From assembly GCF_041886205.1 (NCBI RefSeq), contig NZ_CP169029.1: a stretch of 64,000 bases of DNA; one strand, 5' to 3'. The notes beneath the pieces are model-generated. The model saw nothing but the letters and a program-made list of their open reading frames with translations, was not told the DNA's origin and did not search any database. The DNA is from Escherichia coli (GTDB lineage: Bacteria > Pseudomonadota > Gammaproteobacteria > Enterobacterales > Enterobacteriaceae). The translations under genes were made by a program, and so were the position numbers. Of the stretch, positions 34,918 through 45,443 are shown one piece after another (position 1 is the first letter of the stretch; every line of letters begins with the position of its first letter).

Positions 34918-35232
34918 ATGTCAGCGATACAGGGGATTGAAGGGGTTATCAGCCAGTTACAGGCCACGGCGATGAGTGCGCGTGCGCAGGAATCACTGCC
35001 GCAACCGACCATTAGTTTTGCCGGGCAGCTGCACGCCGCGCTCGATCGCATAAGCGATACACAAACAGCCGCCCGCACGCAGGCAGAAAAATTCACTCTC
35101 GGTGAACCCGGCGTGGCGTTAAACGATGTGATGACCGATATGCAAAAAGCCTCAGTTTCTATGCAAATGGGGATTCAGGTGCGTAATAAGCTGGTGGCGG
35201 CGTATCAGGAAGTGATGTCCATGCAGGTGTAG
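34918..35232 (+). CDS. fliE: Flagellar hook-basal body protein FliE (104 aa)
   Basis: [47 protein letters not shown]...; divergent from fliF. Confidence 0.95.
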
Positions 35233-35525
35233 GTTGTGTGACCTGTTGTTGATTACATCCGATTTTACCGCGTGGGCATGGATGGGGCAAACTCACTCAA
35301 TTTCTGGTTTAAAATGGATACCTGATCCTGAAAGTTTTCTGCCATCCACGATCCGTATACGCGATAAACCCTCTGATCATCAGAGCCCTCATTTGATACA
35401 CATCACCACGTCGGATGTTGTTACGACCGCAGACGCAACAGTAACGTTTGAATAATTTAATCTTTGTTGATGTTTTTATTCATATTCCGGGCTAGGGAAA
35501 TAATCAGGCGTAATTGTGTCACTGG

Positions 35526-35594
35526 AATAGAGGTTTCTTGTGGCGCATGTGGAAGGAGCGTCTACTTTGTCTAATAGAGATTTCTTATGACGCA
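35526..35594. repeat. Imperfect 22-bp direct repeat pair, spaced 47 bp start-to-start, in the yedK-fliE convergent intergenic region
   Basis: AATAGAGGTTTCTTGTGGCGCA (35526-35547) versus AATAGAGATTTCTTATGACGCA (35573-35594): 19 of 22 identical, all three differences are G/A transitions. Confidence 0.5.
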
Positions 35595-35623
35595 GTATTA
35601 TTGATCAATAGTCTCCTGGCTTA

Positions 35624-36292
35624 TCAAACCGGTTGAATTAACTCCGCTCCCTGGTTTTTGATATTACCCACCGCGCGCGATACCGGGTGCCAGGTGAACT
35701 GGTTTGCTGGCACACAACCACTGGTAGCGATTTCTGAGGCTTCTTTACCGCTAATCTCTTGCCGCATCCATTCCCGCGCAGCTTCTGGCGACAGTACCAG
35801 TGGGCGGCGGTCATGAATATCTACCAGACCCTGGTCTGCTGCTGCAGTGACAATCAAAAATCCTTCGGCTTCGTCACCGCGCTCGAACGGTGTGCTGCCT
35901 ATCGCGGCCAGAAAAACAGGTTGTCCATCAGCACGATAGATAAAATAAGGCTGCTTTTTGTCGCCTTCTTTTTTCCACTCAAACCAGCCATCGGCAAAAC
36001 AGATTGCCCGACCATGTTGCCAGAGCGGTTTAAACATGCGACTGGTTGCGGCAGTTTCTACGCGGGCGTTAATCAGCGGCGGTTTATCCCACCATCCGGG
36101 AGCATATCCCCAGAAAACCGGATCCAGATGAAGGTGTTCATCACGTTCACTGAGCAGTAGGACTTTGGTTCCCGGCGCGACGTTGTATCTGCCAATGGGT
36201 TCGGGATCATAGGGAATATCGCGTTCAATATCTTCCGCGAGAAGCGCAAGGTAATCTTCACGCGTTTGGGATTGGGCAAAGCGTCCACACAT
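35624..36292 (-). CDS. yedK: Abasic-site processing protein YedK (SRAP/SOS-response associated peptidase, 222 aa)
   Basis: MCGRFAQSQTREDYLALLAEDIERDIPYDPEPIGRYNVAPGTKVLLL... catalytic Cys2. Confidence 0.93.
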   Translation of the reverse strand: MCGRFAQSQTREDYLALLAEDIERDIPYDPEPIGRYNVAPGTKVLLLSERDEHLHLDPVFWGYAPGWWDKPPLINARVETAATSRMFKPLWQHGRAICFADGWFEWKKEGDKKQPYFIYRADGQPVFLAAIGSTPFERGDEAEGFLIVTAAADQGLVDIHDRRPLVLSPEAAREWMRQEISGKEASEIATSGCVPANQFTWHPVSRAVGNIKNQGAELIQPV

Positions 36293-40032: not shown

Positions 40033-40398
40033 TCACGAGAAGTTATCTTGCGGAGCCAGCACAAAGCCGCCCTGATCGCCATAGGCACTTAACACCGATT
40101 TTTGCACCGATGACTGACCGACCAGTTTCGCCAGTTCATTCATCCGAATCTGTAATAACTGCTTTACCTTGCTTTCGTTATCGAGAATCAGGCGCAGCAT
40201 CGGGCGGAGCTGCTCCTGCATCGTGGTGGACGGGTCAATCTCATCAGTCAGATGTGCAATCTCCTGCACCGCATTCACATACGCCATTTCGCTGGCGATG
40301 AGTTCGTCCCATTGTTCTTCCGTTGCCAGGCGTAACATGAGCTGGCTTTTTTCGACGAGTTGTTGCCAGGCGAAATACAAATGCGGTGCGTGGTTCAT
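40033..40398 (-). CDS. fliT: Flagellar chaperone / FlhDC anti-activator FliT (121 aa)
   Basis: [44 protein letters not shown]... Confidence 0.93.
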
Positions 40399-40808
40399 CA
40401 GACTGGGTCCTGAATCAAAGAAGGGGAGAGTAATGACTCTTTCCAGGCATCGGCAATATTGCGCATTAATGCTTCCACTTCTTCGACTGCGGAGACATCG
40501 TTGCGTAAATTGGCTTGCAGCAAACGCCTGACCATATAGCTATAAAGAGCAATCAAGTTTTGGGTTAGTTCGTCTTTGCTCTCTTCATCAAGACTCACCC
40601 GCAGTCCGTTCTCAATGATGTTGATCGCTTTTGACAAAGAGACGCCTTTGCCTTGCTGATTGTTGTCCTGCATAAACAGGCGCGCTCTAACCAGTGCGCT
40701 TAGCACTCCATCAAATAGCATGGTGACCAGCTGCTGCTGGCTGGCGCTCATTACGGCGCTTTCGACGCCAATTTGTGCATAGGCCTGGGTGCCTTTTGCC
40801 GCGTACAT
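40398..40808 (-). CDS. fliS: Flagellin-specific chaperone FliS (136 aa)
   Basis: [46 protein letters not shown]... Confidence 0.95.
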
Positions 40809-40823
40809 AGTATCTCCTGAAGA

Positions 40824-42239
40824 TTATTTCGAGTTGCTATTTGAGGTGTCGAACTGCTGTGTCAGATAGCTACTGGTGGAGTTAAGCGAGTTCATTAACA
40901 CATCTAATTGGGTGAACTGGGCTTTATAGCGCGTCATTAAGGTATCGATACGCTCACTGGCTGCGTTGTACTGGTCGGTCAAATTATTCAGCGTTTTGCT
41001 GACGCCATCTTTTGCGGCCTGGATTATCCCGGTGGAAGAGAGCCAACTGGTCAGGTTGCTACTAATGCCGGTGGTTACCCCTGTACTTTTACCGTCACCT
41101 ATAAACATTTCACCGATGCCAGTGGCATCTTTTTTTAGCGCCGTTTGCAGTTTGTCGGTCGCGATTTCCAGCTTGCCGGTACTGGCATCGCTGGTAACGC
41201 CAATCTGTGCCAGCGTTTTATAGTTTGAACTGCTGTGAGTATTGGCGAGCAAGGTTTTAAGCTGAGTCTGGATGGTACGCAGTGTGGAGTCACCGAGTAA
41301 TGCGCCATTACTGGAGTCCTGACTTTCTGCTCCGGCATCGACAGCGGTGTATTTGGTTAAGCTACTGAATGTATCCTGCAATGTGTTATAGGCATCCACC
41401 CATGCTTTGACCGCATTTTCAGCTTTGGATGTGTCTTTATTGATGGTCAGTGTCTGATTACCGGTGGTGACGTCATTCAGGTTGAGTGTGATATCTTCCA
41501 GCGCGTCGCTGATAGTGTTACTGCTGTTTTCAATCTCAACGTTATTGACTGTCAGTTTGGCGTTTTGCGCGGTGACGCTTTCAATCATGCCATTGCTGCT
41601 ATCACCCGACGTTCCGTTGTAACCCATAAAACTTTCCAGGGCGCTGTCGCCGCTGACGCTAAGTTTCATAGCGTTATCGTTGCCCGTATCGTTAGCGGTG
41701 ATGGACAGACGATATTCGCCGTTTCCCACATTGATGATACTGGCGCTGACACCAGCTTTGGCGTTGTTAATGGCATCGCGAATGCCGGAAAGTGACGAGT
41801 TAGCTGCGCTGATATCAATCGTGACCGGATCTTTACCGCCGCCTTGCTGGATGGTCAGTACGCTATCGCTGGTGGCGATGGCAGCTTTACTGTCTTTTTG
41901 ACTAATTTTTGTGGTCAGCGTTTGTGCCTGCGCCAGTTGGCTAACGCTAATGGTGTATTTCCCGGCAATCGCGCTGCCCGTGGTGGTGGCGCTGAAAGCC
42001 GATGAACTGCTGGTGGTTGAAGTGGCGGTAAATAAATCGGCTTTATTCAGTGCAGTGTTGGCTGTCTGGAAACTCTCTAGTGCACTTTTCAGCGTCCCGT
42101 AGGCGCTCAGTTTCGCGGTGTAAGAGCTTTGCTGTTTTGATATCGGCGTCAGGGTAGATTTTTCTGCCGCCTCCAGACTGTCAAGGATGCTGCTTAAGTC
42201 CAGCCCCGACCCAACCCCAAGCGTTGAAATACTAGCCAT
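40824..42239 (-). CDS. fliD: Flagellar filament cap protein FliD (471 aa)
   Basis: MASISTLGVGSGLDLSSILDSLEAAEKSTLTPISKQQSSYTAKLSAYGTLKSALESFQ... Confidence 0.95.
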   Translation of the reverse strand: MASISTLGVGSGLDLSSILDSLEAAEKSTLTPISKQQSSYTAKLSAYGTLKSALESFQTANTALNKADLFTATSTTSSSSAFSATTTGSAIAGKYTISVSQLAQAQTLTTKISQKDSKAAIATSDSVLTIQQGGGKDPVTIDISAANSSLSGIRDAINNAKAGVSASIINVGNGEYRLSITANDTGNDNAMKLSVSGDSALESFMGYNGTSGDSSNGMIESVTAQNAKLTVNNVEIENSSNTISDALEDITLNLNDVTTGNQTLTINKDTSKAENAVKAWVDAYNTLQDTFSSLTKYTAVDAGAESQDSSNGALLGDSTLRTIQTQLKTLLANTHSSSNYKTLAQIGVTSDASTGKLEIATDKLQTALKKDATGIGEMFIGDGKSTGVTTGISSNLTSWLSSTGIIQAAKDGVSKTLNNLTDQYNAASERIDTLMTRYKAQFTQLDVLMNSLNSTSSYLTQQFDTSNSNSK

Positions 42240-42381
42240 ATAAATTCCTTAATCATGCGACGTATAGAACGAATACCGGGGTTATCGGCGTAAGCGGGGC
42301 AAAGTTTACGATTTATTTTTTGGCTTAATGACACGAACAGCAACGAGGAAGGGGAGTATTTCGACCGCTAGAAAAAAATTC

Positions 42382-42408
42382 TAAAGGTTGTGAGTGACCA
42401 GACGATAA
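42382..42408 (+). promoter_or_regulatory. Sigma-28 (FliA) class-3 promoter of fliC
   Basis: TAAAGGTT-N11-GACGATAA, close to the sigma-28 consensus TAAAGTTT-N11-GCCGATAA, about 80 bp upstream of the fliC ATG. Confidence 0.6.
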
Positions 42409-42484
42409 CAGGGTTGACGGCGACGAAGCCGAAGGGTGGAAGCCCAATACTTAAACCGTAGACTTGAAAACAGGAAAATGAATC

Positions 42485-43807
42485 ATGGCACAAGTCATTA
42501 ATACCAACAGCCTCTCGCTGATCACTCAGAACAACATCAACAAAAACCAGTCTGCGCTGTCGACTTCTATCGAGCGCCTCTCTTCTGGTCTGCGCATTAA
42601 CAGCGCTAAAGATGACGCTGCGGGCCAGGCGATTGCTAACCGCTTCACTTCTAACATCAAAGGTCTGACTCAGGCCGCACGTAACGCCAACGACGGTATC
42701 TCTCTGGCGCAGACCACTGAAGGCGCACTGTCTGAAATCAACAACAACTTGCAGCGTGTTCGTGAACTGACCGTTCAGGCCACTACCGGTACTAACTCTG
42801 ATTCTGACCTGTCTTCAATCCAGGACGAAATCAAATCCCGTCTCGATGAAATTGACCGCGTATCCGGTCAGACTCAGTTCAACGGCGTGAACGTACTGGC
42901 AAAAGATAACACCATGAAGATTCAGGTTGGTGCGAACGATGGTCAGACTATATCCATCGACCTGCAAAAAATCGACTCTTCTACTCTTGGTTTGAACGGT
43001 TTCTCCGTTTCTAAAAATGCTCTCGAAACTAGCGAAGCGATCACTCAGTTGCCGAACGGTGAGAATGCCCCAATCGCTGTGAAGATGGATGCGTCTGTTC
43101 TGACCGATCTTAACATTACTGATGCTTCTGCTGTTTCGCTGCACAACGTAACTAAAGGTGGTGTCGCAACGTCTACTTATGTTGTTCAGTATGGCGATAA
43201 GAGCTATGCAGCATCTGTTGATGCGGGAGGTACAGTAAAACTGAATAAAGCCGACGTAACATATAACGACGCAGCAAATGGTGTTAAGAATGCCACCCAG
43301 ATTGGTAGTCTGGTTCAGGTTGGTGCTGATGCAAACAATGATGCAGTTGGTTTTGTTACCGTGCAGGGGAAAAACTATGTTGCTAATGACTCATTAGTCA
43401 ATGCTAATGGCGCTGCTGGCGCTGAAGCAACTAGAGTTACAATTGATGGTGATGGTACTAACCAGGCTAAAATTGAACTTAGCCAAAATGGTGATACTGC
43501 TGCAACATCAGAGTTCGCTGGTGCTTCAACCAACGATCCACTGACTCTGCTGGACAAAGCTATCGCATCTGTTGATAAATTCCGTTCTTCTTTGGGGGCG
43601 GTACAGAACCGTCTGAGCTCCGCTGTAACCAACCTGAACAACACCACCACCAACCTGTCTGAAGCGCAGTCCCGTATTCAGGACGCCGACTATGCGACCG
43701 AAGTGTCCAACATGTCGAAAGCGCAGATTATCCAGCAGGCAGGTAACTCCGTGCTGTCCAAAGCTAACCAGGTACCGCAGCAGGTTCTGTCTCTGCTGCA
43801 GGGTTAA
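42485..43807 (+). CDS. fliC: Flagellin FliC (440 aa; H-antigen allele shorter than the K-12 allele)
   Basis: MAQVINTNSLSLITQNNINKNQSALSTSIERLSSGLRINSAKDDAAGQAIANRF... conserved N and C termini (…VPQQVLSLLQG) with a divergent central domain. Confidence 0.97.
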   Translation: MAQVINTNSLSLITQNNINKNQSALSTSIERLSSGLRINSAKDDAAGQAIANRFTSNIKGLTQAARNANDGISLAQTTEGALSEINNNLQRVRELTVQATTGTNSDSDLSSIQDEIKSRLDEIDRVSGQTQFNGVNVLAKDNTMKIQVGANDGQTISIDLQKIDSSTLGLNGFSVSKNALETSEAITQLPNGENAPIAVKMDASVLTDLNITDASAVSLHNVTKGGVATSTYVVQYGDKSYAASVDAGGTVKLNKADVTYNDAANGVKNATQIGSLVQVGADANNDAVGFVTVQGKNYVANDSLVNANGAAGAEATRVTIDGDGTNQAKIELSQNGDTAATSEFAGASTNDPLTLLDKAIASVDKFRSSLGAVQNRLSSAVTNLNNTTTNLSEAQSRIQDADYATEVSNMSKAQIIQQAGNSVLSKANQVPQQVLSLLQG

Positions 43808-43850
43808 TCGTCGTAACCTGATTAACTGAGACTGACGGCAACGCCAAATT

Positions 43851-43950
<100 letters not shown>

Positions 43951-43980
43951 ACATCAAGCGCAATTTGTCAGCAACGTGCT

Positions 43981-44005
43981 CCCCCGCCACCGGCGGGGTT
44001 TTTTC
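43981..44005 (+). terminator. Rho-independent terminator downstream of fliC
   Basis: CCCCGCC-ACC-GGCGGGG stem-loop followed by TTTTTT. Confidence 0.55.
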
Positions 44006-44126: not shown

Positions 44127-44846
44127 GTGAATTCACTCTATACCGCTGAAGGTGTAATGGATAAACACTCGCTGTGGCAGCGTTATGTCCCGCTGGTGCG
44201 TCACGAAGCATTGCGCCTGCAGGTTCGACTGCCCGCGAGCGTGGAACTTGACGATCTGCTACAGGCGGGCGGCATTGGGTTACTTAATGCCGTCGAACGC
44301 TATGACGCCCTACAAGGAACGGCATTTACAACTTACGCAGTGCAGCGTATCCGTGGCGCTATGTTGGATGAACTTCGCAGCCGTGACTGGGTGCCGCGCA
44401 GCGTGCGACGCAACGCGCGTGAAGTGGCACAGGCAATAGGGCAACTGGAGCAGGAACTTGGCCGCAACGCCACGGAAACTGAGGTAGCGGAACGTTTAGG
44501 GATCGATATTGCCGATTATCGCCAAATGTTGCTCGACACCAATAACAGCCAGCTCTTCTCCTACGATGAGTGGCGCGAAGAGCACGGCGATAGCATCGAA
44601 CTGGTTACTGATGATCATCAGCGAGAAAACCCGCTACAACAACTGCTGGACAGTAATCTGCGTCAGCGGGTGATGGAAGCCATCGAAACGTTGCCGGAGC
44701 GCGAAAAACTGGTATTAACCCTCTATTACCAGGAAGAGCTGAATCTCAAAGAGATTGGCGCGGTGCTGGAGGTCGGGGAATCGCGGGTCAGTCAGTTACA
44801 CAGCCAGGCTATTAAACGGTTACGCACTAAACTGGGTAAGTTATAA
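44127..44846 (+). CDS. fliA: Flagellar sigma factor sigma-28 FliA (239 aa, GTG start)
   Basis: (M)NSLYTAEGVMDKHSLWQRYVPLVRHEALRLQVRL... full-length match. Confidence 0.97.
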   Translation: MNSLYTAEGVMDKHSLWQRYVPLVRHEALRLQVRLPASVELDDLLQAGGIGLLNAVERYDALQGTAFTTYAVQRIRGAMLDELRSRDWVPRSVRRNAREVAQAIGQLEQELGRNATETEVAERLGIDIADYRQMLLDTNNSQLFSYDEWREEHGDSIELVTDDHQRENPLQQLLDSNLRQRVMEAIETLPEREKLVLTLYYQEELNLKEIGAVLEVGESRVSQLHSQAIKRLRTKLGKL

Positions 44847-44891: not shown

Positions 44892-45443
44892 ATGATGGTG
44901 CAGCACCTGAAAAGACGGCCATTAAGCCGCTATCTTAAAGACTTTAAACACAGCCAGACCCATTGCGCGCATTGCCGTAAATTACTCGATCGCATTACCT
45001 TAGTTCGCGACGGCAAAATAGTGAATAAAATCGAGATTTCCCGCCTGGACACGCTGCTTGATGAAAATGGCTGGCAAACGGAACAAAAATCATGGGCGGC
45101 ATTGTGCCGATTTTGCGGTGATTTACATTGCAAAACGCAGAGTGATTTTTTCGATATTATCGGCTTTAAGCAATTTCTTTTTGAGCAAACTGAAATGAGC
45201 CCTGGTACGGTGCGTGAATATGTCGTTCGTCTGCGCCGTTTGGGGAATCATCTACATGAGCAAAATATTTCCCTCGATCAGCTGCAGGACGGTTTCCTTG
45301 ATGAAATCCTCGCCCCGTGGCTGCCCACCACCAGCACCAACAATTACCGCATCGCATTACGGAAGTATCAACACTATCAGCGTCAAACGTGTACCGGACT
45401 TGTGCAGAAATCCTCCAGCCTGCCTGCTTCTGATATATATTAA
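44892..45443 (+). CDS. fliZ: Regulator FliZ (183 aa)
   Basis: MMVQHLKRRPLSRYLKDFKHSQTHCAHCRKLLDRITLVRDGKIVNK... Confidence 0.93.
   Translation: MMVQHLKRRPLSRYLKDFKHSQTHCAHCRKLLDRITLVRDGKIVNKIEISRLDTLLDENGWQTEQKSWAALCRFCGDLHCKTQSDFFDIIGFKQFLFEQTEMSPGTVREYVVRLRRLGNHLHEQNISLDQLQDGFLDEILAPWLPTTSTNNYRIALRKYQHYQRQTCTGLVQKSSSLPASDIY

Follow-up and report, generated by a model that had tools for sequence, protein, structure and literature searches.

The flagellin gene of Escherichia coli K-12, fliC-H48 (b1923), is 1497 bp in length, encodes 498 aa and is the same gene, at the same locus and in the same operon layout, as the one described here. In Salmonella enterica FliC (PDB 1UCU, 1IO1 and 9GNZ) the D0/D1 regions are clearly homologous to those of the present protein (phmmer E ~1e-109). 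Among the other E. coli flagellins, fliC-H38 (447 aa; strain CP53, gi|30059908) has ends near-identical to those of the H29 flagellin with which this work is concerned (170/172 N-terminal and 88/88 C-terminal residues) but represents another H antigen, its centre being 49% different and seven residues longer. H38 appears to be the commoner of the two, most of the best partial matches being to a 1344-bp gene, with CP53 alone typed as H38. The outer domains of fliC-H52 and fliC-H33, which are H types distinct from H29, are homologous to that of H29 and share with it the core motifs SLHNV..YVV..G...Y..SV...G.V.LN; the conserved ends of H52 differ somewhat from those of H29 (164/172 and 83/88 residues identical). 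H29 itself has been reported in serotypes including O157:H29 and O26:H29. As a general rule the variable regions of E. coli flagellins have been described as sharing few segments, four pairs excepted (Hu & Reeves; PMC7018530).

In the 64-kb stretch of E. coli DNA analysed here (the window), fliC lies between the divergent fliD and fliA-fliZ, a gene order that is the same as in K-12 and in annotated genomes. It is flanked on one side by fliD, fliS, fliT and amyA and on the other by fliA, fliZ, tcyJ and dcyD, and the fliE-fliR region nearby is complete and intact. The coding features are as follows, the coordinates of fliZ having been transferred from an annotated identical locus with an offset of +36484:

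40033-40398, minus strand: fliT (open reading frame; annotation in identical loci)
40398-40808, minus strand: fliS, flagellin export chaperone (open reading frame; annotation in identical loci)
40824-42239, minus strand: fliD, filament cap protein of 471 aa (open reading frame; FliD_N and FliD_C matched)
42485-43807, plus strand: fliC, flagellin of type H29 (1323-bp open reading frame, 440 aa and stop codon)
44127-44846, plus strand: fliA, the sigma-28 factor that transcribes fliC (open reading frame and annotation; 99-100% nucleotide identity to K-12)
44892-45443, plus strand: fliZ (annotation of the identical locus, inside an enclosing open reading frame)

The feature under study is almost certainly the chromosomal fliC of an E. 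coli strain with the H genotype H29, and nothing in the sequence contradicts this reading. The reading frame is uninterrupted, with both terminal domains at full length, and inspection of the frame revealed neither an IS element nor a frameshift in fliC. Residues 5-143 match the Pfam Flagellin_N family (PF00669) over profile positions 1-139 of 139 with a score of 159 bits (cut-off 26.6), and residues 354-438 match Flagellin_C (PF00700) with 109.6 bits (cut-off 23). Three parts of the gene can be distinguished by comparison with K-12:

42485-42990, plus strand: 5' conserved part, coding for the N-terminal D0/D1 helices (86-91% nucleotide identity to K-12)
42991-43527, plus strand: hypervariable centre, coding for the predicted surface-exposed outer domain that would determine the H29 antigen (no blastn alignment to K-12)
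43528-43807, plus strand: 3' conserved part, coding for the C-terminal D1/D0 helices (85-95% nucleotide identity to K-12)

In a BLASTP comparison with K-12 FliC, residues 1-178 and 351-440 were near-identical and the residues between them gave a heavily gapped and meaningless alignment. A direct count of identical residues gives 163/178 at the N-terminal end and 85/90 at the C-terminal end, corresponding to 92-94% protein identity in the D0/D1 ends. These counts bear out a first-pass annotation of this DNA, which had described conserved N- and C-terminal D0/D1 regions in a FliC of 440 aa as against about 498 aa in K-12; the two lengths are likewise confirmed by the open reading frame and by the 1497-bp K-12 gene. 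The same annotation had named identity of the central region with the K-12 H48 allele as the finding that would overturn it. The centres are not identical: blastn against K-12 left 537 nt (approximately codons 170-348) without alignment, and at the protein level the H29 and H48 centres showed no match (best local E = 0.71). A K-12-type H48 identity is ruled out, as the centre aligns neither as DNA nor as protein. When both are delimited in the same way the centre measures 172 aa here against 230 aa in K-12, a difference of 58, and to have called it ‘compact’ was fair. The interval that had been singled out for it, 43007-43480, corresponds exactly to codons 175-332 and lies inside the variable region, but it is ~50 nt short at its 3' end given the extent of the stretch that cannot be aligned to K-12. 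Alanine (29), valine (20), asparagine (18), threonine (17) and glycine (17) are prominent in the central 180 residues, and the G+C content of the centre is 0.44-0.45 compared with 0.50-0.52 in the ends of the gene.

The H type was assigned from the supplement of Cheng et al. (2013; PMC3578835), a curated FASTA set in which all 53 H types are represented by a total of 196 flagellins. When this set was searched with six variable-region peptides, the only two entries to match were both labelled H29. One of these, gi|33590260, is identical to the present FliC at 440/440 residues. The other, gi|30059896 (443 aa), is 98.2% identical overall and 95.6% identical in the centre. On the identity to the first and the closeness to the second, the genotype at this locus is H29; the H-type comparison that had earlier been recommended has thus been carried out, and the suggestion that the central difference denotes an H antigen other than that of K-12 is supported. 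The entry gi|30059896 is the reference-type sequence from Wang et al. (2003). Since gi numbers in this series rise by 2 per GenBank accession, in agreement with accession-to-H-type tables, we infer that it corresponds to AY250012, from the H29 standard strain N282 (O133:K-:H29). Mass spectrometry of the H29 reference strain has detected peptides of this central region, for example MDASVLTDLNITDASAVSLHNVTK (PMC3578835 supplement). The protein is also an exact match to UniProt Q6VMT9 and RefSeq WP_000079772.1, and at least 260 contigs were found to encode it. It is identical to one deposited ~20 years ago, so that the H29 fliC is an already known and ordinary gene, present in public databases since ~2003, and the assignment serves for in-silico serotyping and for the epidemiological labelling of the strain as H29, which is bookkeeping only.

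Other routes to the H type were less informative. Typing by the AY337xxx accession series was rejected, as the series mixes H12, H21 and H28. Neither the AY337, AY249 and AY250 accessions nor the figure 1323 occurs in PMC7168681, the ECTyper supplements contain no lengths for fliC-type alleles, and a full-text literature search yielded nothing useful on Q6VMT9, its carrier strains or a 1323-bp fliC. Among the records of contigs that encode this FliC, none carries a serotype in its name.

H29 is a recognised but rare H type. Of 5426 complete E. coli genomes, seven have a full-length match to the H29 fliC at a threshold of at least 97.7% identity, and these same seven are the only ones to match the variable region at 43007-43480. 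Four isoforms are present among the genomes with an H29 fliC:

440 aa: the window and four genomes
443 aa, reference type: strain TB06052, an exact match
443 aa with one further change: strain CUVM53
442 aa: strain H9Ecoli

All of the differences among these isoforms fall at residues 193-337. Relative to the reference-type H29 sequence, the allele in the window carries five substitutions (residues 193, 268, 314, 325 and 337) and a three-residue deletion after residue 325, all in the antigenic region. Four independent complete genomes carry exactly this fliC DNA. When the comparison is widened to 25 kb around the gene, three genomes match the window at 100% and two other H29 genomes at only 98.5-98.7%. 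H29 is present on at least three different backgrounds.

An H29 genotype need not in every case correspond to the antigen displayed, since fliC might be silent, either in a non-motile strain or through repression by a second locus such as flkAB. There are precedents for this, as the type strains of H3, H47 and H55 keep intact, unexpressed fliC-H16, fliC-H21 and fliC-H38 genes (PMC7844058). A second fliC-like match was found in one of the H29 genomes, 2017.17.03CC (NZ_AP027829.1), and a second dominant flagellin locus of the flk, fll, flm or fln type is conceivable elsewhere in the present genome because the window covers 64 kb only. On the other hand, the sigma-28 promoter motif, fliA, fliZ, fliDST and fliE-fliR are all intact, with no IS element or frameshift, and wlxctx60, the closest complete genome over the region, has a single fliC-like place. 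In the stretch of wlxctx60 that matches window positions 14001-64000, no second flagellin gene is annotated. We consider it unlikely that fliC is silent or that the antigen displayed is another. As a separate observation, the second match in 2017.17.03CC may be an additional flagellin locus in that genome.

Less probable again is that serology would set the 440-aa isoform apart as a subtype, or in effect as a new H type. Some H types, H1 among them, are reported to contain serological subtypes (PMC4753304), and the five substitutions and three-residue deletion that separate this isoform from the type strain lie, like all the differences, within residues 193-337. Set against this are the identities of 98.2% overall and 95.6% in the centre, as compared with at most 51% between H types (the nearest being H38), and the fact that an identical sequence has been deposited and curated as H29; we would be very surprised if serology were to place it elsewhere. 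That fliC is degraded or chimeric, whether as a pseudogene or as an assembly artefact, is the least credible of these explanations and can for practical purposes be set aside. No evidence was found in support of it and it is refuted by the uninterrupted frame, the two full-length terminal domains, the identical DNA in four independent complete genomes and the occurrence of the exact protein on hundreds of contigs. An intact chromosomal fliC of genotype H29 remains the preferred reading.

Sequences outside the centre of fliC also diverge from K-12. When nucleotide identity was plotted in bins of 150 nt, a single block of allelic divergence could be delimited:

40810-43680, no strand assigned: block comprising fliD, the intergenic region and fliC

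Across the region the identity to K-12 varies as follows:

amyA, fliT and fliS: 93-100% nucleotide identity
all of fliD, from ~40810: 67-80%
fliD-fliC intergenic region: 71%
fliC 5' part: 86-91%
fliC centre: not alignable
fliC 3' part, first 150 nt: 85%
~43680 onward: 95-100%

The block extends from the junction of fliS and fliD to a point ~130 nt upstream of the fliC stop codon, and the bins that flank it are 93-100% identical to K-12, mostly at least 96%. FliD is 471 aa here and 468 aa in K-12 (1407 bp). The first-pass annotation had noted FliD as slightly different in length at 471 aa; the length stands, but ‘slightly different’ understates the case, because at the protein level the identity to K-12 is only 80% and the allele is deeply divergent. 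This fliD allele family is common, occurring in 1325 of 5426 genomes at a threshold of at least 95% identity. The layout of the locus is the same in all H29 genomes examined. The FliD proteins adjoining all four H29 isoforms are 471 aa in length with 461-471 of the 471 residues matching, and the FliD found here (WP_000146824.1) is the same protein that adjoins the H38 fliC in strain CP53. The relation of H38 to H29 looks like an exchange of the centre alone, with the ends and FliD kept. Relative to K-12, and as judged by nucleotide identity, fliD and fliC together are one replaced allelic block in a conserved backbone, a pattern in keeping with homologous recombination, by which H-antigen cassettes are known to be exchanged. 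The locus may serve as a clean example of such a cassette-like replacement of fliD and fliC and raises no new biological question.

Beyond the 3' boundary of the block lies the counterpart of a small RNA. In the K-12 annotation the ncRNA fliX is situated directly 3' of fliC, and positions 43813-44004 of the window are 97.4% identical to it. This is in contrast to the adjacent coding end of fliC (85-95%) and indicates that the sRNA-encoding UTR is outside the replaced cassette. The consensus for sigma-28 promoters is TAAAGTTT-N11-GCCGATAA, and sequences resembling it precede both fliC and fliD. The putative regulatory elements are:

42282-42308, minus strand: sigma-28 promoter-like motif for fliDST, TAAACTTT-N11-GCCGATAA, facing fliD (consensus match)
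42382-42408, plus strand: sigma-28 (FliA) class 3 promoter-like motif for fliC, TAAAGGTT-N11-GACGATAA, 77 nt upstream of the ATG (sequence match)
43808-44004, plus strand: fliC 3' UTR, counterpart of the K-12 FliX sRNA
43982-43998 (stem), plus strand: intrinsic terminator-like hairpin, GC-rich and followed by a T run, which ends the fliC 3' UTR

The functions of promoter, UTR and terminator are ones that we infer from established E. coli flagellar biology, and the same body of work suggests how the gene product would be used. Sigma-28 (FliA) would transcribe fliC from the TAAAGGTT-N11-GACGATAA motif, after which FliS would be expected to chaperone FliC to the flagellar type III export apparatus, the exported subunits polymerising beneath the FliD cap. 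The core of the filament would be formed by the conserved helices at either end of the protein (D0/D1), which would also carry the surface recognised by TLR5; the sequence LQRVRELTVQ is found at FliC residues 88-97. The central domain, of ~170 residues, would project outward and constitute the H29 antigen.

Relatives of this central domain were sought both within E. coli and more widely. A search with the central 185 residues recovered fragments with 47-51% identity across the whole region, and in peptide look-ups in the PMC3578835 set its relatives within E. coli proved to be H33, H52 and H38. The centre of H38 is 51% identical to that of H29 over its full length (E = 5e-51), that of H52 45% (E = 8e-42) and that of H33 44% (E = 2e-33). 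The H29 centre is clearly homologous to all three and belongs with them to a group of related outer domains. The 447-aa relatives were at one point considered as an unnamed H type, which was rejected since they are H38. An exhaustive HMMER scan of 1.84 billion cluster representatives gave only 24 matches to the centre at E <=0.001, a figure to be taken as a minimum, since the clustering of flagellins is governed by their conserved ends. Seven of the 24 were read, and comprised five flagellins (some with D0/D1 regions diverging from those of E. coli), one chimeric-looking fragment and one FG-GAP-repeat protein. An alignment of 21 sequences showed a conserved core at approximately residues 209-300, with invariant G237, Y241, G249, D262 and G295, and variable flanks.

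The FG-GAP-repeat protein, P0061 (775 aa), was the only clearly non-flagellin sequence among the seven matches inspected. Residues 56-121 of the central query were matched in seven repeats (E = 1.2e-8). This is probably a compositional or motif coincidence (SYVVFGGQNFASLVDANGAIEL; GQSYVVFGGQNFASLVDANGAIELS-like) and not homology.

In an AlphaFold2 model built on the 21-sequence alignment, D0/D1 took the long helical form expected of them, with the N-terminal helices at residues 9-129. The centre modelled alone was predicted to form a beta-rich domain, with pLDDT values of 80-91 at approximately residues 177-308, a pTM of 0.72 and a region of low confidence at approximately residues 309-340. 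At the sequence level a search of the PDB with the H29 centre gave no match. A Foldseek search of the PDB with the central-domain model returned Salmonella FliC chains as all of the top 11 hits, though at E ~2e-3 and TM ~0.36. The H29 centre may be remotely related to D2/D3 of Salmonella flagellin.

It may be, though on balance we doubt it, that H29, H38, H52, H33 and a few flagellins with divergent D0/D1 regions have outer domains belonging to one homologous family with a conserved beta-rich core and hypervariable flanking loops, without a solved structure and only marginally like the D2/D3 domains of Salmonella. Were this to be the case, H-antigen diversity in this group would have arisen by divergence on a shared scaffold and not by the import of unrelated domains. 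The published view that few segments are common to the variable regions of E. coli flagellins (PMC7018530) would then need qualification, and the family would be a target for a first structure of this class of outer domain.

Two further observations concern the surroundings of the locus. The genome of wlxctx60 is 100% identical to the window over positions 30000-54999, and over the 50 kb at 14001-64000 the identity is 99.59%, with 203 mismatches and 2 gaps. These differences over 50 kb suggest either that the strain from which the window derives is distinct from but closely related to wlxctx60, or that the flanks have a different recombination history. Elsewhere in the window, yedK (35624-36292, minus strand) and fliE (34918-35232, plus strand) are separated by a gap of only ~390 bp (35233-35623 of the window); the corresponding gap in K-12 is ~2.2 kb and contains yedL, the yedN pseudogene and the intG remnant of cryptic prophage PR-G.
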